DNA from: an uncultured bacterium
GTDB lineage: Bacteria; Acidobacteriota; Thermoanaerobaculia; Multivoradales; JAHZIX01
Direction of reading: 5' to 3'
Assembly (NCBI GenBank): GCA_965368975.1
Contig: CBDUPA010000015.1
Coordinates: 96,001 to 160,000, forward strand
Length of the DNA stretch: 64,000 bases
Shown here: one piece after another, positions 20,611-64,000 of the stretch
Numbering within the stretch: position 1 is the first letter of the stretch
Layout of the letters: every line of letters begins with the position of its first letter
Notes under the pieces: generated by a model
The model's input: only the letters and a program-made list of their open reading frames with translations
What the model was told of the DNA's origin: nothing
Database searches by the model: none
Made by a program: the position numbers and the translations under genes

Positions 20611-20664
20611 TCACCCCACCTCGCCGCCCCGCACCGGCCTAGCCTGGCCTGGCCTGGCCTGGCC
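20611..20664. repeat. Degenerate pentamer array (NNNCC)n / (GGNNN)n, 11 units
   Basis: tcacc ccacc tcgcc gcccc gcacc ggcc tagcc tggcc tggcc tggcc tggcc. Confidence 0.75.
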
Positions 20665-20694
20665 ACGGCAAAGTTGACCTTGCGTTGTACTTCA

Positions 20695-23600
20695 TCACCC
20701 CAGCGCCTCGGGGACGGAAATCCGAGGCTTGGACGCGTCGTCATCGAAGCGGATTCCGAAGAACAGCGAGTACAGCACCGGCACGACACCAAGCGTCAAG
20801 GCGGTGGCGAAGACGAGGCCGAACATGATCGCGACTGCCATCGGTTCCCACATCGGACCACCCCCCAGATAGAGCGGAATGAGACCGCCCAGGGTCGTGA
20901 AGGTCGTGAGCAAGATTGGACGCAGGCGCCGCTGCGCCGAGTCAATGATCGCGGTAGCTGGGTCCATACCACCGGCAATCTCGGTGTCGACACGGTCGAT
21001 CAAGACGATCGCGTTGTTGATCACGATACCGGCCAGCGAGATGACGCCGAGCAAAGTCATGAAACCGAAGCTCGACTGCATCACGAGCAGTCCCACGACG
21101 ACGCCTATCAAACCCAAGGGGATGGTAATCAGGATGATCAAGGGACGGCGAAGGGAATTGAACTGGCCGACCAGCAGCAGGAGGATGATCAGGCCGGCGA
21201 TCGGTAGTTTCTCAGCGATCGATGCGTTCGCCTTGGAAGAGCCTTCCGACTCGCCTCCCAGCTCCCAGCTGGTTCCGCGCGGCCAGGCGGTGCTTTGCTC
21301 CTCGAGCCAGGGCAACAACTGTGCATTGACTTCGGCGGCGGTGACACCCGGTGCCAAGCCGGCCTCGACGGTGACGGTGCGCAGGCGGTTGCGACGACGG
21401 ATGTTGGCGGGCTGCCAGGCAACTTCGATCTCGGCCACCTGGCTCAGGGGCACCGAATGGCCCGTAGCCTGCGCGAAGACGTTGAGCGAGCCTAGCTTGC
21501 TCAGGTCGAGACGGTCCGCGCCGACCGAGCGCAGGGTGACGGGAATGACTTTGTCGCCTTCACGGTACTCGGTGGTTTCGATGCCGGAGAGCAGGGTCTG
21601 CAGGGAGATCGCGATGTCCTGATGGGTAACGCCGGCGGCACGCGCCCGCCGTTCGCGGATATGAACACGCAGCTTCTTCGACCGCGCGCCCCAGTTGTCG
21701 CTGACGCGTCGCGTGCCGGGGATCTCGGCCAATCGCTCCTGTACCTGCGCCACAACTTCGAAGATGACGTCCGAGTCACGGCCGGCGATGCGCACCTCGA
21801 TCGGATTGTCGGTGGGTGCGCCGTTGGACAACGTCGAGATGCGTGCCCTGAGATCCGGGAAGGTCTGGTTGCAGTAGGCCAGCAGACGCTCCTGGGCCAG
21901 GTCCACGAACTCGCGGTCATTGGCGTTGACCAGCAGGATCGCATACTCCGGGCTCGACTGCTCCGGACCGTAGGAGAGCACGAAGCGGGGTGCCCCGGCG
22001 CCGATGAAGGTAGTCCAGTCGGTCACGCCGACCTGTCCCTGCGCGGCCGCCTGCGGGTCGATCAGCAGCTCGTCTTGCAGAAAAGACTCCACCTGATCGA
22101 CGACCTGCTGGGTGGCGGCCAGCGGCGTACCGGTAGGCAGGAACAGTTCCACCTTGAGCAGCGGCTTGTCGTTGGGCGGAAAGAAGATGACCGGCACAAG
22201 ACGGAACAAGGCCATCGCCGCGACGAAGACGACAGCCACCCCAATCAGCGTCAATACCCGATTCCGGAGGGCGAGTTGCAGGAGCCCACGATACGTGCGG
22301 TAGAAGCGGGTATCGTAGGCCGCGTCCCCGCCGGCATCCACTGCCTGGTGCTTCTTCACCTTCAGGAAGGCGACGCACAGTAGCGGAATCATGGTCAGCG
22401 ACAGCACCCATGAGCACAAGAGGGTGATCGTGACGACCTTGAACAGCGGCGCGGTGTACTCGCCGGTGGTCGACTCCGCCAGGTAGATCGGTAGGAAGGC
22501 CGCAGCAGTCGTCAGAGACGAGGTGAGCAGCGGAATGCGCAGTTCGGCAGCCGAATCGATCGCTGCCTGACGCGCACTCTTGCCCTCCCCCATCTGCACC
22601 AGTACCGACTCCGACATGACGATCGCGTTGTCCACCAACATGCCGAGCGCGATGATCAGCGACGCCAATGACATCTGGTCAAGGCCGATGCCAAAGAAGG
22701 ACATCACCAGCAGACTCATGACGATGGCTGATGGGATCAAGCTCGCCACCACCAGCCCCGTGCGCACACCCAGACTGATCAGCATGACGCCAATAACGAT
22801 CAACACCGCCTGCAGCAAGTTGCCGACGAAGTCCTGGATCTTCTTCTCGACCGCAGCCGCTTGATACTGCGCGAAGCTCAGCTCGATACCGTGGGGATAG
22901 GCCGCCTGCAGACGCTCGACCGTCTCGGTGACGGCAAGACCGAGGTCGAGGATATTGCCCCCCTCGCGCATCGACACGGCCAGGACCAGGCCCGGCTCGC
23001 CATTGACACGCACCCTCGTGCGCGGCGGATCGACGTAGCCTCGATAGATGTTGGCGACGTCCTCGAGAAAAATCAGCTGCGCCGGTGACGGCTGCCCTTG
23101 GGCGTTGGCACCCCCACCGAGGTTGATCACGGTGCGCCGCAGATCGTCGACCGACTCGAAGTTGCCGGTCGGCTCGAGCACGATTTTCTCGTTCGGCGTG
23201 CGGATCTCACCGCCTGGGATGATGATGTTACGCGCCTCCAACAGGCTCTGAAGTTGACCGGGCGACAAGCCCAGCTCCGCCAGACGGGCGTTGTTGTACT
23301 CGACAAAGATCCGCTCGTCCTGAGCACCGTGGATCTCGACCTTGGCGACCTGCCCCAACAACAACAGCTCGTCGCGGACTTCGTCGGAAATGTCCTTGAG
23401 TTCGGCGTAGGTATAGCCATCGCCGGTGAGTGCGACCAAAGTGCCGAAGACATCGCCGAACTCATCGTTGACCGTCGGTCCGATGATGCCGGCCGGCAAG
23501 TCCGACGCTACCCTCTCCACCTTGCGGCGCAGCGAGTCCCAGATCGGACGCATGTCGGTGTAGCTCTCCAAGACATTGACCGACAAGATCGACACGCCGG

Positions 23601-37960: not shown

Positions 37961-38148
37961 CCGCCAGGGGCGGCCGCACGGAGCCGCCGGCAACCGGGGG
38001 CCGGAAACGGAACCGGATCTCCGTTGCAGGAGGAACTCCCCACCCCACCCAGGTATTGCCTCGACTGCCAAAGTGTTCTAGAACTACCTTCATACGCAAT
38101 AGCCACCCCACCGCCCACCTCGACGAAGGCGGTCCGCGAGGAGACGAG

Positions 38149-39525
38149 ATGCTCGAAGACCTGACCCGCTACACCCGCGTGCTCGAAATCATCGGCGACA
38201 TGATCCGGGTGCAGGCCAAGGACGTGCCGGTGAAGACGCTGGCGGTGGTGCAGAACGTAGACGGTGAGGTATCACTGGCACGCGTGATCGAACTCGACGG
38301 CGACATGGTGAGCCTGCAGGTCTTCGCGGGCGGCAAGGGGCTGTCGACGGAGGCGCGGGTGCGCTTCCTGGGCGAGCCGCTGCAGGTGACGTACTCACCC
38401 AACATCCTGGGACGCATCTTCCGCGGCTCGGGCGAGGCGATCGACGGCGGACCGGATCTCTCGGCAGACCCAAAGATCGACGTCGCGGGACCGACCGTCA
38501 ACCCGATGATGCGCGTGATGCCGGCGAAGATGATCGAGACCAAGGTACCGATGATCGACGTCTTCAACTGCCTGGTGGAGAGCCAGAAGATCCCGATCTT
38601 CTCCGTCGCCGGTGAGCCCTACAACGAGTTGCTGGCGCGCATTGGCTTCCAGGCGGATGCGGATGTCGTCGTCTTCGGTGGTCTGGGCCTGATCTTCGAC
38701 GACTACCACTTCTTCCGTACCGCCTTCGAAGAGCACGGCGTGTTCCACCGCACGGTCATGTTCGTCAACCTGGCATCGGACCCAATCGTCGAGCGCTTGA
38801 TGGTTCCGGACCTCGCGCTGGCGGTGGCCGAGAAGTACGCGGTGGAAGAGGGCAAGCGGGTGCTGGTGCTGCTCACCGACATGACCGCCTACGCCGATGC
38901 GATGAAAGAGATCGGTGTGTCACTCGAACACATCCCGGCAACACGCGGCTACATGGGCGACCTCTACACGCAGCTGGCGTCGCGCTACGAGAAAGCGTGT
39001 GACTTCAAGGGCGCCGGCTCGGTGACCATCCTGACCGTCACCACCATGCCGGGCAACGACGTCACCCACCCGGTGCCGGACAACACCGGCTACATCACCG
39101 AGGGGCAGTTCTACCTCCAGGATCGCATGATCAACCCCTTCGGCTCGCTGTCGCGCCTGAAGCAGCACGTGATCGGCTCCGTCACGCGCGAGGATCACTC
39201 GCAGGTGATGAACACCATGATCCGGCTCTATGCCGGCGGCGTCGAAGCCGAGAAGAAGCAGGCGATGGCCTTCGACCTCTCTGCCTTCGACGACAAGCTG
39301 CTGCGCTTCTCGGACCTGTTCCGCGAGCGCTTCATGGACATCGAGGTGTCGCTGCCGCTCAACGACGCGCTCGACCTGTGCTGGCAGACGCTGGCGGAGT
39401 GCTTCGAGCCACAGGAGTTGCTGATGAAGCAGCACCTGATCGACAAGTTCTTCCCCAACCGCGATGCATCGAACCGCGACGATGACGCCAGCGGTGAGGT
39501 CACGGCCGCAGAGGACGCCGCCTGA
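38149..39525 (+). CDS. V/A-type ATP synthase subunit B
   Basis: VESQKIPIFS, LLTDMTAYADA, RGYMGDLYTQLASRYEKA, HPVPDNTGYITEGQ. Confidence 0.95.
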   Translation: MLEDLTRYTRVLEIIGDMIRVQAKDVPVKTLAVVQNVDGEVSLARVIELDGDMVSLQVFAGGKGLSTEARVRFLGEPLQVTYSPNILGRIFRGSGEAIDGGPDLSADPKIDVAGPTVNPMMRVMPAKMIETKVPMIDVFNCLVESQKIPIFSVAGEPYNELLARIGFQADADVVVFGGLGLIFDDYHFFRTAFEEHGVFHRTVMFVNLASDPIVERLMVPDLALAVAEKYAVEEGKRVLVLLTDMTAYADAMKEIGVSLEHIPATRGYMGDLYTQLASRYEKACDFKGAGSVTILTVTTMPGNDVTHPVPDNTGYITEGQFYLQDRMINPFGSLSRLKQHVIGSVTREDHSQVMNTMIRLYAGGVEAEKKQAMAFDLSAFDDKLLRFSDLFRERFMDIEVSLPLNDALDLCWQTLAECFEPQELLMKQHLIDKFFPNRDASNRDDDASGEVTAAEDAA

Positions 39526-40199
39526 TGGCCAAGCTGGCGCTCAACAAGAGTACGCTGCACAAGCGGCGCGAGCAGCTGAAGCTGTATCGCCGCGTGCTGC
39601 CGTCGCTCGACCTGAAGCGCCAGCAATTGACCGCCGAGTTGAACCGCATGAAGGCCGAAGAAGAAACCCTGCGCAAAGAGTTCGACGCCACCCTCTTCGA
39701 CGCCGGCGAACGCCTGCCGATGCTGGCGGACACGACGATGGACCTGCAAGGACTGCTGAAGGTCGAGGCGGTGGAATTGAGCGAGGAGAACCTGCTCGGC
39801 GTCAAGCTGCCACGGCTCGACCGGCTGCAGACGCGGGTACGGGATTACTCGCTGCTGGCCAAGCCGCATTGGGTCGACGTGGTGGTCGACCGCATGCGCC
39901 AGGCAGCGGAGTTGCAGCTGCGGTTGGAAGTGGCGGCCGAGCGGGTGCGGCGCACGGACCACGCGGTGCGGCGACTGACCCAGCGGGTCAACCTGTTCGA
40001 CAAGGTGCTGATCCCCCAGGCCCAGGACGACATCCAGCGCATCCGCATCTTCCTCGGCGACCTCGAGCGCGCCGCGGTCGTGCGCTCCAAGCTGGCCAAG
40101 AGCAAGTACCACAAGATGACAGCCCAACGGCAGGTCCAGCGCCAAGGCCACGAGCCGGGACGCGGAGACGGCGCCGAAGCGGCGGGGGGTGCGGCATGA
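39525..40199 (+). CDS. V/A-type ATP synthase subunit D
   Basis: LPSLDLKRQQL, TQRVNLFDKVLIP. Confidence 0.93.
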   Translation: MAKLALNKSTLHKRREQLKLYRRVLPSLDLKRQQLTAELNRMKAEEETLRKEFDATLFDAGERLPMLADTTMDLQGLLKVEAVELSEENLLGVKLPRLDRLQTRVRDYSLLAKPHWVDVVVDRMRQAAELQLRLEVAAERVRRTDHAVRRLTQRVNLFDKVLIPQAQDDIQRIRIFLGDLERAAVVRSKLAKSKYHKMTAQRQVQRQGHEPGRGDGAEAAGGAA

Positions 40200-41983
40200 T
40201 CGTGCCCTTGGTGCGCGTCACCTTCTACGGCCTGCTGGGCGAGAAGGCGCAGGTGCTCGAAGAACTTCAGGCCCAGGGCTGCTTGCACCTGCTGCCGCTG
40301 CGCGCGGGTGCCGAGGGCGAAGAGGCCGAACTGGCGATCGCGCAGGAGGTGCGCGACTCGCTGCAGTTCCTGCTCGCCTCGCCACTCAAGCGCCAGCAAC
40401 GGCACGACCCCGAGCAGTTCGATGCCGCTCGTGTCCAGCGCCACGCGTTGGAAACCCAGGCCAAAATGCGCGAGCTGGAGGACCGCCGCGACTTCCTGCG
40501 CCGGCGTATCCGCGACCTCGAACCCTGGGGCGATTTCACCTTCCCGCCGCGCGACCGACTGCGCCAACAGCGACTGTGGTTCTACATCGTGCCGCACTAC
40601 CTGATGCCGCGTGTCGCCGAGACGGAGCTGGTGTGGCAGACCGTGCACCGCGACACGCGCCACTGCTATGTCGTGGTCCTGGCCGAGGATGTGCCGCAGG
40701 GAATGCCGGTCGAGCGCACGCGCACCGGCGACCGGCCGCTGTCCGAACTGCGTCGCCGGCTGGAGCGCGTCGAGAGCGAGCTCGAAGACCAGCAGGTCGA
40801 GCGCTGGCGTCTGACCTGCTGGCTCGACCAGCTCGCCGGCTCGATGCACCGGCTGGAGAACCGCGCCGCGCGCGACCTGGCCGCCACCCGGACGCACGAC
40901 ACGGACCCGCTCTTCGTGCTGCAAGCGTGGGCCCCCAAGGACCACCTCGACGATCTGCGCACCTACGCAGAAACCAAGGGCCTGGCGCTGGTGACCGAAG
41001 AACCGAACGACGAGGATGCCCCACCGACGCTGCTGCGCAACCCGACCTTGGTGCGCGGTGGCCAGGATCTGGTGTCCTTCTACTCGACGCCCAGCTACGA
41101 TCTTTGGGACCCGTCGCCCGTCGTCTTCTTCTCGTTCGCCGTCTTCTTCGCCATGATTCTGTCCGACGCTGGCTACGCGCTGCTGCTCGGCCTGCCGCTG
41201 CTGTTCAAGTGGAAGGCGATGGGCACGACGCCGGTGCGCCGCGGTCTGCGCAACCTGTGGCTGACACTCACCGCCACCTCGGCTGCCTGGGGCATCGCGG
41301 TAGGCAGCTACTTCGGCCTGGCACCGCCCGAAGGCGGCCCACTGGCCAGCGTCAACCTGCTCGATGTGCGCGACAGCACAACCATGATGAAGCTCTCCGT
41401 CGCCGTTGGCCTGCTGCACGTCGCCTTCGCCAACGCGGTGGGTGTATGGCGGCTGCGTCGCTCGGCGGCAATGCTGGTGCCCCTGGGCTGGCTGGTGATC
41501 CTGCTCACCGCCGGCTTCTGGGGCCTCTCCCACGGTACCGTGCTGGCCGCGCAGGGAGCGCTCGTGGGCCCCTGGGGCCTGGCAGCCGGCGGTACGCTGG
41601 TCCTGTTGTTCAGCGGCTTGGGGGCCAAGCCCTTCGGGCGCCTGTTCCAGGGCCTGATCGGCGTCTACCGGGTGACCAACGCTTTCGGCGACGTGCTCAG
41701 CTACCTGCGCCTGTTCGCCCTCGGGTTGGCCAGTGCATCGCTGGCCACCGCCTTCAACGACCTGGCCCGTCAGGTCGCCGAGGACATGCCAGCCTTCGGC
41801 ATGCTGCTGGCCCTGATCGTGCTGCTCTTCGGTCACGGTCTCAACTTCCTGCTCGCCGTGGTCAGCGGCTTCGTGCATGGCCTGCGGCTCAACTTCATCG
41901 AATTCTTCAACTGGGGTGTGCCCGAAGAGGGCCGCCCGTTCCGCGCTTTCGCCAAGAAGGAGGCAGTCCAGTGGAATCCATGA
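40196..41983 (+). CDS. V/A-type ATP synthase subunit I (a)
   Basis: PPTLLRNP, FFAMILSDAGY, DVLSYLRLFALGLA (essential Arg), HGLRLNFIEF. Confidence 0.93.
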   Translation: MIVPLVRVTFYGLLGEKAQVLEELQAQGCLHLLPLRAGAEGEEAELAIAQEVRDSLQFLLASPLKRQQRHDPEQFDAARVQRHALETQAKMRELEDRRDFLRRRIRDLEPWGDFTFPPRDRLRQQRLWFYIVPHYLMPRVAETELVWQTVHRDTRHCYVVVLAEDVPQGMPVERTRTGDRPLSELRRRLERVESELEDQQVERWRLTCWLDQLAGSMHRLENRAARDLAATRTHDTDPLFVLQAWAPKDHLDDLRTYAETKGLALVTEEPNDEDAPPTLLRNPTLVRGGQDLVSFYSTPSYDLWDPSPVVFFSFAVFFAMILSDAGYALLLGLPLLFKWKAMGTTPVRRGLRNLWLTLTATSAAWGIAVGSYFGLAPPEGGPLASVNLLDVRDSTTMMKLSVAVGLLHVAFANAVGVWRLRRSAAMLVPLGWLVILLTAGFWGLSHGTVLAAQGALVGPWGLAAGGTLVLLFSGLGAKPFGRLFQGLIGVYRVTNAFGDVLSYLRLFALGLASASLATAFNDLARQVAEDMPAFGMLLALIVLLFGHGLNFLLAVVSGFVHGLRLNFIEFFNWGVPEEGRPFRAFAKKEAVQWNP

Positions 41984-42429
41984 CCCTGGTCCTCGGATGG
42001 CTCGGTATCTTCGCACCGGTCGCCCTGGGGGCGGTGGGCAGCATCATCGGCTGCGCGCGCGCTGGCCAGGCGGCTTGCGGGGCGCTGCTCGAGACCGAAA
42101 CCGGCCACGGCCGTTACATCGGCATCTCGGCCATGCCCTCGTCGCAGACCATCTACGGCATCGTCGTGATGCTCACCCTCAACCGTGCGGTCGACCTCGA
42201 CAACGCACCCGGCCTGTTCGCCATCGGTGTACTCTCCGGTGTGGCACTGATGCTCAGCGGCATCCACCAGGGCAACTGCTGCGCCTCGGCGATCAACGTG
42301 TCGAAGAGCAAGACGTCGATCTTTGGCCTGTCGATCGCACCAGCGGCGGTGGTCGAAGGCTTCGCCGTCTTCGTCTTCGTCTTCGCCTTGGTGCTGTCAG
42401 GCGGCCTACCGGGCGCCGGAGGGTCCTGA
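41971..42429 (+). CDS. V/A-type ATP synthase subunit K (c), four transmembrane helices
   Basis: GSIIGC, AMPSSQTIYG, HQG, VVEGFAVF; GTG start behind AGGAGG (ATG at 41980 is an alternative). Confidence 0.92.
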   Translation: MESMTLVLGWLGIFAPVALGAVGSIIGCARAGQAACGALLETETGHGRYIGISAMPSSQTIYGIVVMLTLNRAVDLDNAPGLFAIGVLSGVALMLSGIHQGNCCASAINVSKSKTSIFGLSIAPAAVVEGFAVFVFVFALVLSGGLPGAGGS

Positions 42430-42432
42430 GTC

Positions 42433-43125
42433 ATGCCCTCTCCAGCCACGCAGCACCCGGTGTCCTCGGGCGTCCAGGAGCTGATCGAGCGGCTGCGGCG
42501 CGAGGGCGTCGAAGCCGGTGAGTCCGAGGCACGCGACGCCGTCGCCCAGGCGCGCCGGCAGGCCGACGAGATCCTCAGCTCGGCACGCCGCGAGGCCGAA
42601 GAGCTGCATGCGCGCACACGTCGAGAACTCGCAGCCGAGCGCGACGCCGCGCACGAGGCTCTGCGCCTGGCCGCCCGCGACCTGCAGCTCGAACTCAAAG
42701 AGCGCCTGACCGCCCGCTTCGAGGCACAGGTCAAGCAGCTGGTGAGCGCCGATTTGTCGAGCCACGATGGCCTGCGAGCACTGATCCTCGCCGTCGCCGG
42801 CCACGTCGGTGTGGAGCTAGCGGACGCGGCCGACGCGGGCCAACAGATGCAGGTAGCCGTCAGCGGCGATCTGTCGAACGAGCAACTCGACACGCTGACC
42901 CGCGAACTCGCCGCCGGCCTGCTGCGCGAGGGCGTCGAGCTGGTGCCAGCAGCCGAGGGCGGCCCAACCGGTAGCACGGCCAGCGGTGCCCAAGACGGCG
43001 GTATCCGCGTCCGGCTGGCGGACCAGGACATCGAGGTCGACCTCAGCGCGAACGCTCTCGCCAGCTTGCTGCTGCGCCGCTTGACGCCGCGCTTCCGCGA
43101 ACTGTTCGCCGCACTGACGGCCTGA
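42433..43125 (+). CDS. V/A-type ATP synthase subunit E
   Basis: GVQELIERLRREGVEAG coiled coil, GGIRV, LTPRFRELF. Confidence 0.85.
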   Translation: MPSPATQHPVSSGVQELIERLRREGVEAGESEARDAVAQARRQADEILSSARREAEELHARTRRELAAERDAAHEALRLAARDLQLELKERLTARFEAQVKQLVSADLSSHDGLRALILAVAGHVGVELADAADAGQQMQVAVSGDLSNEQLDTLTRELAAGLLREGVELVPAAEGGPTGSTASGAQDGGIRVRLADQDIEVDLSANALASLLLRRLTPRFRELFAALTA

Positions 43126-43150
43126 GGCCCGAGCAGGAGAGAACTTCCCC

Positions 43151-43858
43151 GTGAGCAACCGTCACTACTACACGTTGATGGCCAGCCTGCCGCCGCTACC
43201 GCGCTTCGACCGCGCCGACCGGCTGCCGATCAACCAGGAGCGTCTCAACGAGCGCATGTCGATGCTCGAAGACGACGATGCCGACGTGGTGCGCGCCGCC
43301 GAGAACTACCTGCATTGGAACCGCCAGCCGGTCGATCGCACGTCGGCCGAGGTCGTCGAGTTCTACGGCCAGCTGATCGCTCGCTCCAGCGATGAGACGC
43401 TCAACGCCATGCTCGAGTACCGCATGACCGAGCGTACGATCATCGCCGCTCTGCGCCGCCGGCTGCGCGGGCACCCACCGCCGGCCGCCGGTGAGCCCTG
43501 GGGTGTTGGCCCGTGGGTCGGCCACATCGAGCGCAATTGGGACGCTCCCGACTTCCGTCTCAGCCCGGTCTTCCCGTGGTTGCCGGAAGCCAAGCGCCTG
43601 CTCGAAGACGGCGAAGCACGCGAGCTGCAACGCTTGCTGATGGGCCTGATCTGGGACCAGCTCGTGCGCCTGGCCGAGAACCGTCCCTTTCACTTCGACG
43701 CCCTGCTCTGCTACCTCTTCCGCTGGGACATCTTGCGCCGCTGGCTGAGCTACGAAGACACCGCCACGGCCCGTCACCGCTTCCGTCAGCTACTCAGCCA
43801 GGTGACCGCCGACCATCACCTGGAGTTCGCGCCTCCGACGTCGATAGCCGCCTCCTGA
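43151..43858 (+). CDS. DUF2764-like V-ATPase accessory protein (subunit C-like)
   Basis: YYTLMASLP, F.FDALLCYLFRW.IL.RW; lies between subunits E and A as in Chlamydia/Bacteroidota-type operons. Confidence 0.75.
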   Translation: MSNRHYYTLMASLPPLPRFDRADRLPINQERLNERMSMLEDDDADVVRAAENYLHWNRQPVDRTSAEVVEFYGQLIARSSDETLNAMLEYRMTERTIIAALRRRLRGHPPPAAGEPWGVGPWVGHIERNWDAPDFRLSPVFPWLPEAKRLLEDGEARELQRLLMGLIWDQLVRLAENRPFHFDALLCYLFRWDILRRWLSYEDTATARHRFRQLLSQVTADHHLEFAPPTSIAAS

Positions 43859-43877
43859 AATCCTGAGGACCGCCACC

Positions 43878-45695
43878 ATGCCCACGACCTCGCCCCCAAC
43901 TCCTCACACCGGCACGAGCCACGACCTCTCTGTAGGTCACGTCGTCGCCGTGCGCGACAACCTGCTGACGGTGAACGTCACCTCCGGCCCGATGATGAAG
44001 AACGAGGTCGCCTACGTCTGCCTCGGCGACCTGCGGCTGAAGGCCGAAGTCCTGCGCATCCAGGGCACCAGCGCGGACCTACAGGTGTTCGAAGAAACCG
44101 CAGGCGTGCAGGTGGGCGACCGCGTCGAACTGACCAGCGAGTTGCTCTCCGTCACGCTCGGCCCTGGCCTCTTGGGCCAGGTGTTCGACGGTCTGCAACA
44201 GCCGCTGAGCGAGCTCGCACGCCAGTACGGCTTCTTCCTGCCACGCGGCATCACGCTCGACCCGCTCGACCGCAGCAAGAAGTGGCCCGTCACCGCCGTC
44301 GCCGCTCCCGGTGACCGTGTTGCCCCCGGCGGTGTCCTCGCGACGGTCCCGGAAGGCCCGTTCGAGCACAAGATCCTGGTGCCGTTCAATGAACCGGAAG
44401 CCGTCGAAGTGACCTGGATCCGCTCCGGCAACCTGACGCTCGACGAACCCCTCGCCCGCCTGCGCGGCGCCGACGGCCGCGAGCGGGAGATCGGCCTGAC
44501 GCAGCGTTGGCCGGTGCGCAAACCCATCCCCGCGGGCTTGCTGCAGCGTCGCCACGCCGAGCGCCTCTATCCCAACGAGCCCCTGATCACGACCATCCGC
44601 CTGGTCGACACCTTCTTCCCCATCGCCCGCGGCGGCACCGCCTGCATCCCCGGCCCCTTCGGCGCCGGCAAGACCGTCTTGCAGAGCCTCTTCTCGCGCT
44701 ACTCCAGCGCCGACATCGTGATCGTCGTCGCCTGCGGTGAGCGGGCCGGTGAGGTGGTCGAGACGATCACCGAGTTCCCCGAGATGCAGGACCCGCGCAC
44801 CGGCGGTTCGCTGATGGACCGCACCATCATCATCTGCAACACCTCGTCCATGCCCGTCGCCGCCCGCGAGTCGTCGATCTACACCGGCATCACCCTGGGG
44901 GAGTACTACCGCCAGATGGGCTACAGCGTCCTGGTACTCGCCGACTCGACATCCAGGTGGGCCCAGGCGATGCGCGAGATCTCGGGCCGCATGGAAGAGA
45001 TCCCGGGCGAGGAAGCCTACCCCGCCTACCTCGACTCCTCGATCCGCAACATCTACGAACGCGCCGGCGTCATCCAATGCGCCGACGGCAGCGTCGGCAG
45101 CCTGACGCTCGTCGGCACGGTCTCCCCGGCGGGCGGCAACTTCGAAGAACCGGTCACGCAGGCTACCTTGTCGACCGTCAAGACCTTTCTCGGCCTGTCG
45201 TCCGACCGCGCCTACAAGCGATACTATCCCGCCATCGACCCCTTGCTCTCCTGGTCGCGCTACCTCGACCAGCTCGCCCACTGGTACAAGGACAACCTGG
45301 ACGACACCTGGGTCGCGGACGTCAAGGAACTCTCCGAGCTCCTACGCCGAGGCGACTCGATCCACCAGATGATGCAGGTGACCGGCGAAGAAGGCATCAC
45401 GCTCGACGACTATGTCGTATGGCAGAAGGCGACGCTCTTGGACCTGGTCTACCTGCAGCAAGACGCCTTCGACGACATCGACGTCTCGAACACGCTCGAC
45501 CGTCAGAAAGACAGCTTCCACCTACTGCGTGACCTGATCCGGCGGAGCTACAACTTCGCTGACAAAGACCAGGCACGCAACTACTTCACGCGCCTGACTG
45601 GCCTGTACAAGAACCTCAACTACAGCGCCGACGGTGGCCCAGAGCACCAGCGCTACAAGCAACAGATCACGGACTTGGCAGCGCAGTATTCGTAG
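43878..45695 (+). CDS. V/A-type ATP synthase subunit A
   Basis: LGPGLLG.VFDGLQ, PGPFGAGKT, ACGERAGE, ADSTSRWAQA, PGEEAYPAYL, VSPAGGNF. Confidence 0.96.
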   Translation: MPTTSPPTPHTGTSHDLSVGHVVAVRDNLLTVNVTSGPMMKNEVAYVCLGDLRLKAEVLRIQGTSADLQVFEETAGVQVGDRVELTSELLSVTLGPGLLGQVFDGLQQPLSELARQYGFFLPRGITLDPLDRSKKWPVTAVAAPGDRVAPGGVLATVPEGPFEHKILVPFNEPEAVEVTWIRSGNLTLDEPLARLRGADGREREIGLTQRWPVRKPIPAGLLQRRHAERLYPNEPLITTIRLVDTFFPIARGGTACIPGPFGAGKTVLQSLFSRYSSADIVIVVACGERAGEVVETITEFPEMQDPRTGGSLMDRTIIICNTSSMPVAARESSIYTGITLGEYYRQMGYSVLVLADSTSRWAQAMREISGRMEEIPGEEAYPAYLDSSIRNIYERAGVIQCADGSVGSLTLVGTVSPAGGNFEEPVTQATLSTVKTFLGLSSDRAYKRYYPAIDPLLSWSRYLDQLAHWYKDNLDDTWVADVKELSELLRRGDSIHQMMQVTGEEGITLDDYVVWQKATLLDLVYLQQDAFDDIDVSNTLDRQKDSFHLLRDLIRRSYNFADKDQARNYFTRLTGLYKNLNYSADGGPEHQRYKQQITDLAAQYS

Positions 45696-56638: not shown

Positions 56639-58044
56639 GCCGCCACCGCGGCCTTGTCGGCGGTCACGTCGTCCGAGGCGGCGCCAGCGCGGCGCACGGA
56701 CACCGCGACTCCGGCGACCTCGCACAGCTTCTTGCCATCCGCCGTGAAGGTATCGATCACGGTTTGGTCCAGACCGATGCGCAGAGGAACGCCGCCGATC
56801 GTCGGCGTGATCTCGGGCAACTGAAACACCGGAATCTTCAGCAACGCGATCATGTTGACGATGAGGTTGGCGATCGGACTCAAGAGCTCATCGACGATGC
56901 GTGACAGGAGCCGGTTGATGAATTCGGGCACCTCGTCGAACCGGAGGTCGATGTTCAAGCGCTGGGTCAGGCTGAATTGATGGAAGCGCACCCAGCCCTC
57001 AGAGAGCAGGACCGAAGCCACGACCTGCGGCCTGGCCAGAATCGACAGACCCACGCGGACCCAATCCCACCACTTCCAGAAAGCCCTGATGCGGAAGCCT
57101 GCCCGACCTGAACCATAGGCCTCCAGGGATGCCAGGGTCTTGTTGCCGTCCTGCAGCGCGAAGCGAGGACTGCGCAGACCGACGCTGAAGCTGGCGCGCC
57201 CTTCGATCCCCAACCCTGGCTCCCACTCTTCCTTGCCGTGGGCCTGCCCCGCCTGGCGCGTGTGCCGGAGAATGCTGGTCGCCGCGCCGTTGGCCACGGC
57301 GTCGTCGAAGTGCACGAAAACGCCCTTGCGGTTGCGCACGGTAATCCCCTCGGGCGCCTGCGTCGTCGACCCCTTGAGGGCCGCGTAGCCGGCAACCACG
57401 CCTTGGCTGACCCGCACGGCGGGCGCCGCGAACTCGACGCCCTCGAAGCGGATCGCTGGCAATTCGAAGCCCTTGCCGAGGTACTCATTGACCTTGGGCA
57501 GCAGTAAGGGAACAAGGTAGTCGTTGACCAGCCGTTCCAGCTCCGGGTCCGGCTTGCCGGTCAGCTGGACTCGGGCGGTCAGCGCCTGCGGCACCAGCCT
57601 CCAATCAGGCGTGAACTGGGCGACGGCACCGATCGAAACGGAGCCCTCGAACCGGCGCTCGGGCCGGCCGTTGATCGAAACACCCAGGATGACCTTGTTG
57701 GCCAAAACGTCGAAGCTGGCCCTGGAATCCACCATCCCGTCGATCAGCGAAGTCACGTCCGTCCCTTGCAACAACTCGGCGACGGCTGCCGCGCCAGCTT
57801 GCTCCGCCTGCGGCTGCGTCCAGCTGGCCAGCAATCCGGCCTTGTACTCGGCCACCAGCGCAGAGTTCTTGAACCGGAAGACGAAGGCCTGAGCCAGGTC
57901 GTAGGTCGCCTTGATCTTCAAAGGCTCGGTCACTTCGAGTTCGCCTTTGAGCGGAGCGTTGGGATAGATCTGAGCGTGGAGTTGCCTGGAAAGGTTGTTG
58001 AAACTCTCTTCTGTCGCGCCTGCTACCGCGTTGTACGTGGCCAT
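56635..58044 (-). CDS. Hypothetical protein, probable BPI/LBP/CETP (TULIP) lipid-binding fold
   Basis: 469 aa in two similar halves; LVNDYLVPLLLPKVNEYLGKGFELP resembles the BPI C-terminal LPRVNEKLQKGFPLP segment; GAGGAG RBS; stop overlaps the start of the GPLD1-like gene. Confidence 0.6.
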   Translation of the reverse strand: MATYNAVAGATEESFNNLSRQLHAQIYPNAPLKGELEVTEPLKIKATYDLAQAFVFRFKNSALVAEYKAGLLASWTQPQAEQAGAAAVAELLQGTDVTSLIDGMVDSRASFDVLANKVILGVSINGRPERRFEGSVSIGAVAQFTPDWRLVPQALTARVQLTGKPDPELERLVNDYLVPLLLPKVNEYLGKGFELPAIRFEGVEFAAPAVRVSQGVVAGYAALKGSTTQAPEGITVRNRKGVFVHFDDAVANGAATSILRHTRQAGQAHGKEEWEPGLGIEGRASFSVGLRSPRFALQDGNKTLASLEAYGSGRAGFRIRAFWKWWDWVRVGLSILARPQVVASVLLSEGWVRFHQFSLTQRLNIDLRFDEVPEFINRLLSRIVDELLSPIANLIVNMIALLKIPVFQLPEITPTIGGVPLRIGLDQTVIDTFTADGKKLCEVAGVAVSVRRAGAASDDVTADKAAVAA

Positions 58045-58204
58045 GCTCTTCTCCTCGTACCTGCACTCCTCGTCGAGCACGGGGAGACACAGGGAGCCTC
58101 GGGTTGTCTCTTGCAGTCATCCTCCGACGCTCGCAGGAAGCTGAAGAGTCTCGACCCAAGGCTGTCGCCAGGCGCGGCAACCTCTCACCGTCTTTGCAGG
58201 CCGC

Positions 58205-59191
58205 TCACTTCTCGTCGACCCAGGTCTGCCCTGCCTTCTCGACTTCACTGTCCCAGCCGCGCCGTGTGTCGTGGGTTTCCTCGTCGCCGCCGTTGACGCG
58301 GATCTTCCAGGTGGTGTCGCTCTTCATGTGGCCTTTGCCCGGCAGACAGGTGACTTCGATGTCGACCACATCACCCGCAGCCACCTCCACGGGTGCGTGT
58401 AGGGGCAGGCGCGGACGGCCCCAGTGGGTGTCAGGGGCTTCGGGGCCGGTGGACAGTTCGACGCCACCGCCCAGATCACTGGTGAACCAGAGCACGAAGG
58501 CGTTGAGACGACCCGCACGCTGGACCTCGAAGCTGGCACGGCCGTGGTAGGGCTGGCGCGACTCCGTGGCCGAGAAGGTATGGCAGTCGTGGCGCCACAG
58601 CTGGCTGGCGGGGGCCAGGAGTTCGGACGCCGGACTGGGCCGGCCCGGACGCTGGACGTTCTCGCACAGGACGTCCGCCATGCGGCCGAGCTCGACGCCG
58701 TAGGGCTGACCGCGCCAGAACTCCATGTCTTCGTGGAACTGGGCATTGTCGACCGGCGCGATGTAGACCGTGCAGTCGGCCGGCATCATGGCGCCGCCGG
58801 GCTTCAGGTACTTGTCGCGCGCGTCGAGCATGGCGGGCAGCATGTTCTCGTCGACGCCGTAGGTCCCCATCCACTCGGAGACGATCAGATCGACCTTGCC
58901 CGGCAACTCGACCTCGGACGCATCCGCTTCGAGCACCTCGATGCGGTCACTCAGGCCGTTGTCGGCAATGAAGTGACGGGCCAGCTGAGCCATGTGACTG
59001 ATCTCGACGGCGTAAACTTTCTCGGCCCCAGCGCGGGCCGCGAAGATGCTCAGCAAGCCACTGCCGGCACCGACGTCGAGCACGGTCTGCCCCGGCTGGA
59101 CGACCGCGTTCAGGGCCTGCTGGAACGCTTCGCAGCGGGCGCGGTCGCGCAGCATGATCAGGTGCATGACAATGGAGGCGTAGTGGTACAT
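58205..59191 (-). CDS. Eukaryotic-type protein arginine N-methyltransferase (PRMT-like)
   Basis: H..ML.D..R, VLDVGAGSGLL, VYAVE, VDLIVSEWMG...ENML double-E loop, ARDKYLKPGG, FW..PYG arm, LSTGPEAPDTHW loop. Confidence 0.88.
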   Translation of the reverse strand: MYHYASIVMHLIMLRDRARCEAFQQALNAVVQPGQTVLDVGAGSGLLSIFAARAGAEKVYAVEISHMAQLARHFIADNGLSDRIEVLEADASEVELPGKVDLIVSEWMGTYGVDENMLPAMLDARDKYLKPGGAMMPADCTVYIAPVDNAQFHEDMEFWRGQPYGVELGRMADVLCENVQRPGRPSPASELLAPASQLWRHDCHTFSATESRQPYHGRASFEVQRAGRLNAFVLWFTSDLGGGVELSTGPEAPDTHWGRPRLPLHAPVEVAAGDVVDIEVTCLPGKGHMKSDTTWKIRVNGGDEETHDTRRGWDSEVEKAGQTWVDEK

Positions 59192-59221
59192 GAGATCTCC
59201 TCGGTAAAGACTCGGCAGAGT

Positions 59222-62200
59222 TCAGACAGGTTCGTGGATATCGTCGCGCACGGCAGCGTGCCGGGCAGTCAAGATGCGGCGCAGGGTGGCGGCCACCGGG
59301 CCGACGTGCGGTTCGAAGAGGAAGTTGGAGTGCTCGCCGTCGAAGCGCTCGACGTCGATTGGCCCCGCGCACAGGCGGCTCCAGCCGTAGGTCGGATCCT
59401 CCACCATGTCGCGGATGCCGGGGGCGTCGCGCAGGTAAAGAGAGTCGTAGTGGCGCGTGCGTAGCAGCAGCAGGCGTGCCTGCCTCTGGGTGCCGCCGGG
59501 CCCGCCGAGATCGGGGTGGCCGTAGCCGCGCCCCTCGGCATCGCGGCTGGGCTGAAAGTCGAGACCACTCCGCACGCGCGCCCGGAAGCGGTCGAGCCAG
59601 TGTTCGAGGTAGGCGGGACCGGCGTCGGTGGGCAGCAGGCGTTGCTCGCGCATCAGGGCGAGCACGAAGCGGATCTGTTCGACGGTCTCCAGGCCCTGCA
59701 GGTCTTCGGCCGACAACGCCAGGTCGAGGTCGGCCTTGCGGGCGTGGATCTGGGCGATCTGGACCAGGATGTCGGCACTCGACTCGGCCAGTTCCGGCTC
59801 CTCGGCGGCGTCGACCGGCGCCCGGGTGTCGAACAGGACGACCAGGCTGGGCGAGCGCCCCTGGATGGCGAGCTGGCTGGCGATCTCGTAGGCCAGCAAG
59901 CCGCCGAACGACCAACCGGCGAGGATGTACGGCGCCGCACCCCGGGACGACCACCCCGCAGACGGCCACCGCCGGTCCAGCTCGCGCACGTGCGCCGCGG
60001 CCATCTCGGGAATGCTGCGGAAGGTAACGCCAGCCCCGGGACGGCTGGCCTCCGGGTCGCGCAGACCCCACACCGGCTGCTCCGAGCCCAGGTGGCGCGC
60101 CAGGTCATGGTACGAGATCACTTCACCGCCGAAGGCATGGACGCAGACCAGCGGCGCTAGACTGTCTTCCGAGGCACCCGAGACCGGCTCGGCATCCGCC
60201 TGCACCCGGATCGGCACCAAGATCTTCGACGGCGCCTCGGACGCCTGGCGCAGCTGCCGTAGGTGCGTCGCCAGACCGGCGATGGTGGGCGCCCTTAGCA
60301 GGTCGCCGATCTCCAGCTCGGCCGCGTCGCCACGACTGGCCAGCCCCTCGCGCAGGCGCCACACCAGCTGCAACGCCAGCACCGAGTGGCCACCCAGTTC
60401 GAAGAAATCGTCGTCGACCCCGAGCGCGTCGACGCCCAGCGCCTCGCTCCACAGCTCTGCGATCCAGGTCTCGAGCTCGCCCTCGGGCACTCGGTAGGCA
60501 GTACTGACGGCCGGACGCGACTGCCGGGCACCACTGCCGAACGGGGAGTCACTCTTCGACGACACCGCGGGCTCTTGCACGGGCGTGCTCGCCTGCCAGG
60601 CTACGGCCGGCGGCTGGTCGAGACAGAAGACCGTGGCTTCACCGGCCAAGCTCAGGAGCTGATCGAGGGACCGACCTCGCGAACGTGGCTCGGAGCCGAG
60701 CATGCCCCACACCAGGTGCTGCCAGGGCTGCGCGTCGCGCGCTCGGCTGCGGCGGGCGAAGGCGTCGAAATAGCTGAGCGCGGCGGCGGCGGGTGCGGAT
60801 GACGGCGGCCAGGCGGAGACGATCCACTTGATGGAGCAGGTGTCAGCGACCTCTTCCAGCCAGGCGTCCAACAGCCTATCCAGCACCCGCAGACCGTCGA
60901 GACGCGGCCGGAAGCTGCGCTTGAAGTCGACCAGATCGAGCGGCTCGACGCCCTCGGCTGCTGCGCCAGGAACCAGCACCGGGGCCTGACGTTCACCGGC
61001 CACCGCCGCGGCGTGCACGATCGCGCGAGGAGCCCCCCAGTCCCGCAGCTCGTCGAGCAGGATCTGCAACGCGCCGGCCTCGGCGACGTCGCAGCGCCAC
61101 AGACGCAGCTCGGCGCCGCGCGCTTCGAGCGCCTGCAGCCGCCGGATCGACGCGGCTTCCGGTGTGCCGACCTGGGCGTCGAGCCAGGCGTCCCAGTTCT
61201 CGCGCACCGGGAACGGGTTCTGGCTCACCAGTGCCAATCTCAACTGCGCTTGCGAAGCCACCAACATTTCGGCCACCGCCAGCCCCGGATCACTCAAACC
61301 ACCTGTGAGCAGGACGACGCTACCCTCCGGCAAGTACCGCGTGGAGAGTCCCTCTGTCCCTGGCCCTCCCAGAGCTTCGAGCGCCACGGCCGCCACCGGC
61401 TCGAACGACGGCAGCCACCGCTGGTCGCCGACCCAGGCGACGTGCGCCTGATCACCGGCCGTCGCAGGAACCGCGCGCTCGGCATCGTGCAACCAGCGGT
61501 CGAAGCAACGGTGGCGCACGGCTTGCGGCAGGCTGGCGCCGTGGCCGCCTTCCGGCAGGCGCAGATCGAGGACCCGCAGCGGCAGCCCAGGTGCCTCACG
61601 CCGCACCGCGTCGATCAACCCGTGCAGCACCGCTGCGGCAGGCCGGGGTGGCGACCCCGGCGCGCAACTAGCACCGCCGGTGACTACGACAAGAGGCTTG
61701 CCGGCGGGCGGGTTCGTACCCTCTGGGACGGAACGCAGCAAGTCGAGCAGAGCAGCCACGTAGGCGGCGACCCTGGACGCCGGGGGGGCGTCCTCCATGG
61801 CCTCCGGAGTGGCGACGAGGGCCAGGATGTCGGCGTCTTCAGGACGCTCCGCCAGCTGGCGGCCGTGACGCTGCAGCGTCGTGCGCCAGCCGTCGAGCAA
61901 GGCGGAAGGTGGCGCTCCGTGGCCTGGCGTCTGCAAGTACCAGCTGGGTGCGGACTCAGCTGATCGCAGCACCCCCGGCACTGGCGCAGCAGGCGACCAC
62001 CGCGGTAGGTAGAGTCCGTGCTCCGCGACCCGCGGCGCCTCGCTGCCGATCGCGGGTCGCCGGCGATCCAGCCAGTAGCGTCCGCCCTCGAAGACGGTGC
62101 CCGGCAGGCTGAGTCGACGACGGCCGCCGGTACTCTCGGGAGACGTGCCGTCGGGAGATGTGCCGTCGGGAGAAGGCTGGCCGTGGAAGGCCCGCGGATC

Positions 62201-64000
62201 GGCGTCGACGCCCGCCAGCCACAGCCGACCGAGGGTCTGCACGGCACGGGTCGCATCGTTCGTGGCTTCGGCGCCGGCACCGACCATGGTGCGCACGGGA
62301 CCGAGCGCGGGAATTGCGCGTCCCGGTACGGCGGCCGGCTGACGTCCGACCAATTTGCTCAGTGCGTCGCCGGGACCGACCTCGAGACACAAGTAGCCGG
62401 CGTCGAGCAGGTGCTCGACGCCGCGCGCAAAGCGCACCGGTCGGCGAAGCTGGTCGACCCAGGCGTCCGGATCGGTGGCTTGTTCGGCGGAAATCCAGGT
62501 GCCGGTCAGATTGGACAGATAGGGCGTCGACGGCGGCTGCAAATCGGCGGTGGCGACACAGGCGCGGAAGGCATCCAGCATCGGCTCGAAGGCGCGCGAA
62601 TGGAAGGCGTGCGAGGTGTGCAGGGGCCGGGCCGGCACGCGCCGCGCCTCCAGCTGCACGCGCAGCGCCTCGACGACATCGGCCGGACCGGCGACGGTGC
62701 ACAGCTCGGGCGCGTTGACCGCCGCCAGGTCGAGGGCCTGGAATGAGGGCTGCTGCAGCACCTCGAGGACACCCGCCTCGTCGAGTCCCACGCCCAGCAT
62801 GGCACCGGGCTGGGCTCCGGAAGGAATCGCGGCCATCAGCCGGCCGCGCTCGGCGACCAGCGTCAACGCCGTTTCCAGGTCCATCACCCCGGCCCGGTGG
62901 GCGGCGACGAACTCGCCGATCGAATGACCGAGGTAGGCCGTCGCGCGCACGTCCCAGCTCTCGAACAGCTCGGCCACCGCCACTTCGACAGCGAACAGCG
63001 CCGGCTGGGCGATGGCGGTGTCTTGTAGCTGGTGGGCGTGTGCGTCCGGCGCCAGCACGCCACGCAGGGTCAAGCCTCCTTGCTGCTCCCGCCACAGCGG
63101 ATCGAGCACGGCGGCGCAGCGATCGAGCGCGGTGCGGAACACCGGCTCATGGGCGTCGAGTTCCCAGGCCATGCCGGGGTGCTGCGTCCCCTGGCCAGGG
63201 AAGAGGAAGGCAACCGGCGGCGCGCCTTCGGTTGCGGTAGCGGTGGCAGTGGCAGTGGCAGTGGCAGTGAAGGTCGATTCCGAAGCCTGAGCACGCAGCC
63301 CCGCGACTGCCGACGCCACGTCGCGGCACACGATCACCCGCCGGTGCGGCTGCGACTTGCGACCGTCGGCGAGGGTGAAGGCGACATCTTCCAGCTCGAC
63401 ATCTTCCAGTGCGACATCTTCCAGCACGGGTGACTCGCCAGCTTCAGCGCGTGCCTGTAACCAAGCCGCCAAGCGCTCGGCCGCGGCGTCGAGCGCGCTG
63501 TCGGTTCGAGCCGACAGTCGTAGCAGCCGGTCCGGTCGTGATGCCGAGGTCGTCGTGGGCATTTCAGGTGCTTCTTCCAACACCACGTGGGCGTTGGTGC
63601 CACCGATGCCGAAGGAGCTGACGCCCGCGCGTCGCGGGTGCGTCTCGGGACGCGGCCACGGGCGCAGTTCGGCGTCGACGTGGAAGGGACCGGCGGCGAA
63701 GTCGATCTTGGGATTGGGGCACTGGAAGTGCAGCATCGGCGGGATCTCACGGTGGCGCAGCGCCAGGACCGTCTTGATCAGACCCGCGACACCCGCCGCG
63801 GCGTCGAGGTGGCCGAAGTTACTCTTGATGCTCCCAAGGCTGATACTTCCTAGGCTGGTACTGGCCGAGCTGGTACTGCGAGCATCCGCCGCGAAGACGC
63901 GGTGCAGGGCGTCGACCTCGACCGGATCGCCGAGCGGCGTCGCGGTACCGTGCGCTTCCAGGTAGCCGAGACTGGACGGCTCGACACCGGCGGCGGCCAG
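59222..64000 (-). CDS. Type I PKS terminal module KS-AT-KR(inactive)-ACP-TE (5' end outside window)
   Basis: EAHGTATPLGDP, KSNFGHLDAAAG, SFGIGGTNAH (KS); FPGQG, GHSIGE, HAFHS (malonyl AT); degenerate KR; FFELGGHS (carrier); GWSFGG and GEH (TE). Confidence 0.93.
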   Translation of the reverse strand: MAAAGVEPSSLGYLEAHGTATPLGDPVEVDALHRVFAADARSTSSASTSLGSISLGSIKSNFGHLDAAAGVAGLIKTVLALRHREIPPMLHFQCPNPKIDFAAGPFHVDAELRPWPRPETHPRRAGVSSFGIGGTNAHVVLEEAPEMPTTTSASRPDRLLRLSARTDSALDAAAERLAAWLQARAEAGESPVLEDVALEDVELEDVAFTLADGRKSQPHRRVIVCRDVASAVAGLRAQASESTFTATATATATATATEGAPPVAFLFPGQGTQHPGMAWELDAHEPVFRTALDRCAAVLDPLWREQQGGLTLRGVLAPDAHAHQLQDTAIAQPALFAVEVAVAELFESWDVRATAYLGHSIGEFVAAHRAGVMDLETALTLVAERGRLMAAIPSGAQPGAMLGVGLDEAGVLEVLQQPSFQALDLAAVNAPELCTVAGPADVVEALRVQLEARRVPARPLHTSHAFHSRAFEPMLDAFRACVATADLQPPSTPYLSNLTGTWISAEQATDPDAWVDQLRRPVRFARGVEHLLDAGYLCLEVGPGDALSKLVGRQPAAVPGRAIPALGPVRTMVGAGAEATNDATRAVQTLGRLWLAGVDADPRAFHGQPSPDGTSPDGTSPESTGGRRRLSLPGTVFEGGRYWLDRRRPAIGSEAPRVAEHGLYLPRWSPAAPVPGVLRSAESAPSWYLQTPGHGAPPSALLDGWRTTLQRHGRQLAERPEDADILALVATPEAMEDAPPASRVAAYVAALLDLLRSVPEGTNPPAGKPLVVVTGGASCAPGSPPRPAAAVLHGLIDAVRREAPGLPLRVLDLRLPEGGHGASLPQAVRHRCFDRWLHDAERAVPATAGDQAHVAWVGDQRWLPSFEPVAAVALEALGGPGTEGLSTRYLPEGSVVLLTGGLSDPGLAVAEMLVASQAQLRLALVSQNPFPVRENWDAWLDAQVGTPEAASIRRLQALEARGAELRLWRCDVAEAGALQILLDELRDWGAPRAIVHAAAVAGERQAPVLVPGAAAEGVEPLDLVDFKRSFRPRLDGLRVLDRLLDAWLEEVADTCSIKWIVSAWPPSSAPAAAALSYFDAFARRSRARDAQPWQHLVWGMLGSEPRSRGRSLDQLLSLAGEATVFCLDQPPAVAWQASTPVQEPAVSSKSDSPFGSGARQSRPAVSTAYRVPEGELETWIAELWSEALGVDALGVDDDFFELGGHSVLALQLVWRLREGLASRGDAAELEIGDLLRAPTIAGLATHLRQLRQASEAPSKILVPIRVQADAEPVSGASEDSLAPLVCVHAFGGEVISYHDLARHLGSEQPVWGLRDPEASRPGAGVTFRSIPEMAAAHVRELDRRWPSAGWSSRGAAPYILAGWSFGGLLAYEIASQLAIQGRSPSLVVLFDTRAPVDAAEEPELAESSADILVQIAQIHARKADLDLALSAEDLQGLETVEQIRFVLALMREQRLLPTDAGPAYLEHWLDRFRARVRSGLDFQPSRDAEGRGYGHPDLGGPGGTQRQARLLLLRTRHYDSLYLRDAPGIRDMVEDPTYGWSRLCAGPIDVERFDGEHSNFLFEPHVGPVAATLRRILTARHAAVRDDIHEPV
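63230..63268 (-). repeat. In-frame hexamer repeat encoding (TA)n in the KS-AT linker
   Basis: actgcc x4 then accgct accgca acc, giving TATATATATATAT. Confidence 0.85.

Follow-up and report, generated by a model that had tools for sequence, protein, structure and literature searches.

A PRMT-Type Methyltransferase Gene behind a Hybrid NRPS-PKS Gene in a Probable Thermoanaerobaculia Genome: a Candidate Guanidino-Tailoring Enzyme

Results

Position and Sequence Motifs of P0001

The window analyzed here, a 64,000-nt stretch of contig CBDUPA010000015.1 (GenBank assembly GCA_965368975.1, positions 96,001 to 160,000 of the forward strand), contains on its minus strand a gene, P0001, coding for a PRMT-type methyltransferase (PRMT, protein arginine methyltransferase). 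P0001 follows geneB, a hybrid nonribosomal peptide synthetase-polyketide synthase (NRPS-PKS) gene ending in a thioesterase (TE), and is considered here as a candidate tailoring enzyme of the corresponding pathway. The stop codon (TGA) of this upstream gene is placed at 59222-59224 and is followed by 30 nt before the P0001 start. The gene and its sequence elements are arranged as follows.

58205-59191, minus strand: PRMT-type methyltransferase gene P0001, an open reading frame of 328 amino acids with an ATG start and its stop codon at 58205-58207
59197-59202, minus strand: ribosome-binding site GAGGAG in the sequence, 5 nt 5' of the ATG
59057-59083, minus strand: motif I VLDVGAGSG, the S-adenosylmethionine (SAM)-binding loop, residues 37-45 (translation and alignment)
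58847-58879, minus strand: double-E loop SEWMGTYGVDE at residues 105-115, with the two Glu (E106 and E115) by which PRMTs bind the guanidinium; its counterpart in the PRMT6 alignment is SEWMG..HE
58652-58750, minus strand: helical dimerization arm, about residues 148-180 (helices 150-160 and 169-176 in the model)
58421-58429, minus strand: THW loop, T255-H256-W257 (family alignment)

Conservation was read from a family alignment of P0001 with 24 bacterial relatives (25 rows). Residues V37, L38, D39, G41, G43, and G45 of motif I are invariant in all 25 rows, as are the columns of the post-I motif VYAVE (residues 59-63) and S105, E106, W107, G109, and E115 of the double-E loop. In the THW loop, H256 and W257 are likewise invariant and T255 is present in at least 90% of the rows. 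Departures of P0001 at conserved columns are few, with a tyrosine (Y128) in place of tryptophan and a serine (S238) in place of alanine. A preliminary description of this DNA, drawn up from the letters alone, had listed a complete PRMT core, and motif I, post-I, the double-E loop, the arm, the barrel, and the THW loop are all found. That description had also pointed to two conserved methionines; these are present, since in the phmmer alignment M13 and M117 each fall on a conserved Met of PRMT6. They are presumably the equivalents of PRMT1 M48 and M155, two residues linked to asymmetric dimethylation, which is the product type they would imply.

The N terminus of P0001 reads M-Y-H-Y, in which the last Tyr (Y4) of the YFxxY motif alone is kept and the full YFxxY helix is absent. 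In PRMTs, YFxxY is the N-terminal helix that closes over SAM. A longer N-terminal frame was looked for in P0001 and no extension is possible; of the 25 bacterial relatives aligned, most have three residues or fewer ahead of the equivalent Tyr, and four start with MY. Because the frame is not extendable and most relatives are equally short, the N terminus is not a clipping. The missing YF of the preliminary description is correct, whereas its clipped or truncated P0001 is rejected, a short N terminus being typical of the bacterial relatives. The content of G and C at third codon positions (GC3) is 0.857 in P0001, similar to that of other host genes.

Family Assignment, Fold, and Predicted Dimer

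The C-terminal part of P0001 (residues 140-290) matches the Pfam family PRMT_C (PF22528) with 64.2 bits compared with a cut-off of 27, and residues 25-140 match many class I methyltransferase models of Pfam. Among sequences of the PDB, PRMT6 is the best phmmer match (E=3.4e-47, residues 4-305, identity 33-34%), followed by PRMT1-like proteins, PRMT2, PRMT3, PRMT8, and CARM1. The AlphaFold model calculated from the 25-row alignment has a pLDDT of 91.7 and a pTM of 0.89, with only the last 11 residues below 50, and contains a β-barrel with strands from 129 to 308 and a helical arm with helices in 150-176. The comparison of a predicted structure with known PRMTs, which the preliminary description had put forward as a check, returns the PRMT β-barrel, and the top structural match in Foldseek is PRMT6 (5egs_A, E=3.4e-36, TMq 0.84, 320 columns). 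Judged by its motifs and its modeled fold, P0001 is a catalytically complete PRMT with the type-I hallmarks save YFxxY.

The two-copy prediction of P0001 scores 0.84 compared with 0.00 for the best control; this mark is attained by 20 of 30 proteins whose solved structure is a one-chain pair, compared with 1 of 23 whose solved structure is a single chain. The dimer runs have at least 44% of their contacts in common, and the partner pLDDT is at least 88. In the predicted interface, arm residues 158-175 (158 and 163-175) pack onto the Rossmann helices of the second chain at 7-24, 46-53, and 66-78, so that P0001 is predicted to assemble into a head-to-tail homodimer through the arm. Since PRMT dimers have already been solved, this score may reflect likeness to the solved PRMTs and is not a proof.

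The assignment of P0001 as PrmA is rejected, as TIGR00406 gives 45.5 bits compared with a curated cut-off of 183.15; the Pfam PrmA match is limited to profile positions 153-233 of 296, corresponding to the Rossmann part. That automated pipelines would apply this label had been anticipated in the preliminary description, and one homologue of P0001 is indeed named "50S ribosomal protein L11 methyltransferase" at NCBI, with others named "RsmD," "precorrin-6B methylase 2," and "RNA methylase." For annotation this means that PRMT-like relatives are carried in public records under the names PrmA, RsmD, "RNA methylase," and "precorrin methylase."

The Upstream NRPS-PKS Genes

59222-64000, minus strand: 3' end of geneB, a hybrid NRPS-PKS gene of 8190 amino acids, with part of a ketosynthase (KS) domain followed by acyltransferase (AT), ketoreductase (KR), acyl carrier protein (ACP), and TE domains within the window (Pfam)

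The geneB frame runs off its contig (C15) and continues at the beginning of contig C10, with which C15 shares an exact 55-nt overlap. The genome contains this 55-mer exactly twice, and the combined reading frame extends without a stop from a GTG over 8190 amino acids. Written with A, C, and T for adenylation, condensation, and carrier domains, the Pfam architecture of the preceding geneA (3538 amino acids) is A-T-C-A-T-KS-AT-KR-T, and that of geneB is C-A-T-C-A-T-KS-AT-T-aminotransferase(class III)-C-A-T-C-A-T-KS-AT-KR-T-TE. The two genes together comprise six A domains, three KS-AT modules, one aminotransferase domain, and a terminal TE, with KS-AT-KR-ACP-TE as the last module of geneB. A pure PKS context is rejected on these Pfam domains; the preliminary description had called the upstream gene a PKS, which does not hold for this NRPS-PKS hybrid, and had placed the P0001 start 30 nt behind its TE end with a GAGGAG ribosome-binding site of its own, which does. 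Position on the same strand as the TE-ending gene, the short gap, and the separate ribosome-binding site form an operon-like arrangement in which P0001 may be co-transcribed with geneB. By collinearity the product would contain six amino acids as well as three C2 units; of the latter, one would acquire a β-amino group, and the last would extend the final amino acid into a β-hydroxy acid.

The six A domains were aligned with MAFFT, and ten specificity-code positions, numbered as in GrsA, were read out for each. The resulting codes are DLENLGAVS-, DACCVGVVVK, DPLLAGLVTK, DAFFLGVTFK, DTDDCSMVGK, and DPLYQGQIDK. Acidic pocket residues occur in three of the six domains, with E239 in the loader, D239 and D278 in module 6, and D331 in module 7; by the logic of Stachelhaus, acidic pocket residues would fit cationic or long polar side chains. 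The code of module 4, DAFFLGVTFK, is the only one that can be assigned, and it is assigned to Ile/Val, being printed for the Ile/Val positions of cyanopeptolin synthetases in Table 1 of PMC2533009; this identity validates the column mapping.

Flanking Genes

Upstream of geneA are genes for a cytochrome c-like protein, a VTT-domain protein, and a TonB-dependent receptor. A Pfam scan of the neighbors found no recognizable tailoring gene besides P0001 around geneA and geneB. On the other side of P0001 the following features are present.

56635-58080, minus strand: orf481 (P0121), with no family in searches of Pfam and NCBIfam
54164-56725, minus strand: orf853, 853 amino acids, with a zinc phospholipase C domain and FG-GAP repeats (Zn_dep_PLPC 3.4e-11, FG-GAP 2.2e-31; Pfam)
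54126-54155, minus strand: terminator-like hairpin, the sole one on this strand between 53500 and 59400 (sequence scan)
52703-53629, minus strand: Mrr-type restriction endonuclease gene of low GC content (GC 0.553, GC3 0.537)
50581-52380, minus strand: flavin amine oxidase gene with a twin-arginine translocation (TAT) signal (Pfam), 6 kb downstream of P0001

The product of orf481 was not found in any of the 40 relatives searched, and its protein-atlas leads, both TULIP/BPI-like (lipid-binding; 0.85 and 0.83), are weak and below the recognition mark. orf481 possibly belongs to the same operon as P0001, with orf853 possibly the last gene of that operon. On the minus strand no terminator-like site is present from P0001 down to 54155. 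The hairpin at 54126-54155 is weak evidence alone, as shuffled sequences give a mean of 2.5 such sites compared with the one found. The Mrr gene, whose GC3 of 0.537 lies well below the 0.77-0.89 of the remaining genes measured, probably represents a separate insertion marking the cluster edge. The other PRMT or TE loci examined were found to have no homologue of the amine oxidase, of orf481, or of orf853 in their vicinity. Elsewhere in the window, a V-type ATPase operon is encoded on the plus strand at 38056-45695. Its A subunit is 63-71% identical to its best matches, which come from many phyla (Gammaproteobacteria, Planctomycetota, Desulfobacterales, and Gemmatimonadota); this likeness suggests wide horizontal spread and makes the subunit uninformative for the taxonomy of the host.

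Host Genome and Distribution

The host is a member of the Acidobacteriota, probably of the class Thermoanaerobaculia; its RpoB is 83-86% identical to those of its closest relatives, of which the named ones are called "Thermoanaerobaculia bacterium" and, once, "Acidobacteriota bacterium." In the 7.1-Mb genome, 30 stop-free frames of at least 700 amino acids run off contig ends. As those examined are megasynthase genes, the host is unusually rich in NRPS/PKS genes and its assembly breaks inside them.

P0001 is a singleton in a collection of 5.8 billion clusters, where the best non-self match is 47% identical (8000 candidates scored, 361 hits). In a second collection of 1.84 billion representatives at 50% identity it is its own representative, the best full-length relative being 45% identical; 14,637 proteins match P0001 at E≤0.001 and 1,494 at E≤1e-30. 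It was not found in any of five genomes of the same family, where the best match (E 3e-6) corresponds to generic methyltransferases, and this absence means that P0001 is not a housekeeping gene of the lineage. P0001, the cluster, and orf481 are alike without orthologues in the relatives searched, a strain-specific distribution. For the aminotransferase region of geneB the best relative elsewhere is 57% identical, and for its ACP-TE region 39% identical. The host carries a second aminotransferase domain of the megasynthase type (G000:C11:31741-33081), 56% identical to that of geneB, with an in-frame TAG within its 720-amino acid frame.

A quick tree of 60 rows (P0001, 21 of the 24 relatives in the alignment, 14 of the 149 listed non-self representatives, 20 loci of the class, the L020 gene described below, and three NRPS-embedded domains) was calculated by a quick search with SH-aLRT support. 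P0001 branches at the base of a clade that unites compact bacterial PRMTs from different phyla (SH-aLRT 96). Neither the NRPS-embedded domains nor the PRMT-like genes of the host's own order group with it, and long-branch warnings apply to this placement. Some bacterial genomes contain two PRMT-like genes, either in tandem or no more than 5 kb apart (L008 8910-10948; L015 9250-11470; G313:C66:17307-23071).

One further locus, L020, taken from a Thermoanaerobaculia record, encodes in a row on one strand (6381-20917) an arginine deiminase family protein, an ornithine carbamoyltransferase, a PRMT-like protein, and an NRPS of at least 3075 amino acids. The PRMT-like protein has 401 amino acids, is 30% identical to P0001, and keeps both Glu residues and the THW loop. 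The code of an A domain at this locus, DFWNVGMVHK, is one residue off the code given for a Thr position in Table 1 of PMC2533009. L020 is a second, independent case of a PRMT-like gene beside an NRPS gene and supports the link between P0001 and the cluster.

Discussion

The best reading of these observations, and one that we hold to be somewhat more probable than its competitors combined, is that P0001 is a guanidino-methylating tailoring enzyme of the NRPS-PKS pathway. P0001 would be an active, homodimeric, type-I-like enzyme of the PRMT fold, catalyzing the SAM-dependent methylation of a terminal guanidino nitrogen. It would be translated from the same transcript as geneB, the last gene of the two-gene assembly line, and would serve as the single tailoring enzyme of the pathway. 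An arginine-type residue would be methylated once or twice, whether as the free amino acid prior to loading, while bound to the carrier protein, or within the product after its release.

A number of results weigh against this reading. NRPS/PKS domains are found beside 1 of 21 genome loci of PRMT homologues, and NRPS/PKS genes beside none of the 20 loci of the class with PRMT-like genes and none of 80 metagenome PRMT loci, only 23 of which are longer than 6 kb; the lone hit in the metagenome count, L313, is a generic methyltransferase match. The neighbors of PRMT homologues are thus rarely NRPS/PKS genes, so that tailoring is not the role of this family at large. Conversely, a PRMT-like gene was found within 6 kb of a related ACP-TE region in none of 80 loci, and an orthologous cluster was not found in the collections searched. 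Five of the six A-domain codes are unmatched in the literature searched, and none of the six is tied to Arg. Finally, with its few departures from the family consensus, P0001 gives no sign in its sequence of an altered substrate.

The strongest alternative, to which we assign a real although distinctly smaller likelihood, is that P0001 is a PRMT in the literal sense, as its relatives in other bacteria may be, and either lies beside the cluster by chance or has a self-resistance or regulatory role in which it methylates a cellular protein such as the target of the product. The nearly consensus catalytic core of P0001 is what such an enzyme would have. Of 401 genomes from the class of the host, 73 have PRMT-like matches at E≤1e-20 (a count that includes the host genome, G000, and the unpublished G201), with the 20 such loci examined being devoid of NRPS/PKS genes nearby, and among the loci compared no neighbor of bacterial PRMT genes is conserved beyond the genus level. 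A resistance role would also have parallels, as resistance methyltransferases are common in gene clusters, with SasO/SasN as described in PMC12637814 as an example. The 30-nt spacing behind the TE-ending gene argues instead for a link to the pathway. Also opposed to a function in cellular protein methylation are the position of P0001 in the quick tree, where it does not join the PRMT-like genes found in its order, and the strain-specific distribution that is common to P0001, the cluster, and orf481.

A second alternative, which appears improbable, keeps P0001 as a tailoring methyltransferase and gives it a non-guanidino acceptor, a side-chain hydroxyl or amine, as proposed for LynB3-OMT and ColG. 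Tyr O-methylation has been assigned to an embedded PRMT-like domain (PMC10127204), and both the host genome and its order carry PRMT-fold domains embedded in larger frames, located in host contig C17 (5351-amino acid frame), G021 (5392-amino acid frame), and G010 (3693-amino acid frame). In C17 (67593-83645, equivalent to L078 1594-17646) the methyltransferase domain is positioned between an A domain and a carrier domain of an NRPS that ends in a TauD-type dioxygenase domain; it is 31% identical to P0001 residues 2-253, and the first Glu is replaced (SNL). The Trp following the first Glu is lost in all three embedded domains (SEI or SNL). The His of the THW loop is lost in both embedded domains that align there (YTW and YAW), the C17 alignment ending before the loop. 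P0001, in contrast, keeps E106-W107, E115, and T255-H256-W257, and the retention of E106-W107 and THW where the embedded domains have lost them argues for a guanidino acceptor in P0001. The embedded domains also form a separate, long-branched clade in the quick tree.

That P0001 is a non-functional or unexpressed remnant, as its singleton status in the databases might suggest, is very improbable given the intact frame, the full set of catalytic residues, the confidently predicted fold, the host-like codon usage, and the good ribosome-binding site.

If P0001 does act as a guanidino-methylating tailoring enzyme, a bolder claim might be made, which we put forward tentatively and regard as doubtful: that it is the first stand-alone canonical type-I PRMT acting on a nonribosomal assembly line, its product being a peptide-polyketide that contains mono- or asymmetrically dimethylated Arg, possibly as the residue extended to a statine-like unit by the last KS-AT-KR module. 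Should this be true, the proposal that eukaryotic PRMTs derive from peptide-tailoring methylases could be studied on P0001 as a bacterial model amenable to experiment. In practical terms, an orphan assembly line of ~11,700 amino acids is combined here with a single tailoring enzyme of well understood chemistry, providing a mass shift of 14 or 28 Da as a handle for the product.

Comparison with Known Systems

Methylation of arginine or of arginine-derived moieties by enzymes encoded in gene clusters is known from other pathways, with which P0001 is likened here by description. In the streptozotocin cluster, SznE methylates free arginine and yields N-ω-methylarginine as a building block, and a homologue 31% identical to SznE led to the saskemycin cluster (PMC12637814). 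Cluster-encoded methylation of Arg to give such a building block is one of the options proposed for P0001. Unlike that of P0001, the streptozotocin and saskemycin clusters are not NRPS-PKS assembly lines. BlsL is the guanidine N-methyltransferase of blasticidin S, where it is the sole methyltransferase of the cluster and acts at a late step on an arginine-derived moiety; its similarity to GAMT and PRMT is given as low (PMC5572114). The nitrogen methylated differs, with BlsL acting on the delta nitrogen whereas a terminal guanidino nitrogen is proposed for P0001.

The PRMT-like methyltransferase domains located in NRPS adenylation domains (LynB3-OMT and ColG) are described as proposed O-methyltransferases, and the embedded domain assigned to Tyr O-methylation has ~30% similarity to arginine methyltransferases (PMC10127204). 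Domains of this type have in common with P0001 the PRMT fold and a role in nonribosomal peptides. They are embedded and ~30% identical to P0001, which is not located in an adenylation domain and forms a separate 328-amino acid open reading frame with its own start and stop.

The closest precedent for the gene arrangement is the occurrence of bacterial PRMTs in NRPS operons, found by comparative genomics by Aravind and co-workers as cited in PMC3417536, so that the association of PRMT genes with NRPS operons is already in print. According to the same source, PRMT domains also occur inside giant synthetases, and amine oxidases related to LSD1 are typical companions of these bacterial PRMTs. P0001 resembles these systems as a stand-alone bacterial PRMT adjoining NRPS genes, with a flavin amine oxidase encoded 6 kb downstream. 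Differences are apparent in that the operon link described there is a prediction from genome comparison, and most of the PRMT homologues sampled here are not beside NRPS/PKS genes. The amine oxidase of the window also carries a TAT signal and is separated from the PRMT gene by two genes, the terminator-like site, and the low-GC Mrr gene.

The eukaryotic type I PRMTs (PRMT6, PRMT2, PRMT1, PRMT3, and CARM1) and P0001 share the two-domain fold, motif I, and the double-E loop, as well as the THW loop, the dimerization arm, and the two conserved Met residues. The predicted dimer of P0001 is likewise of the arm-to-Rossmann type seen in the eukaryotic enzymes. Compared with these, P0001 is without an N-terminal extension and has an 18-residue C-terminal tail of low confidence; it is bacterial and is encoded behind an NRPS-PKS gene. 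With 328 amino acids, 34% identity to human PRMT6, and a position in what appears to be a biosynthetic operon, P0001 would provide a compact test case for a bacterial peptide-tailoring origin of eukaryotic arginine methylation.

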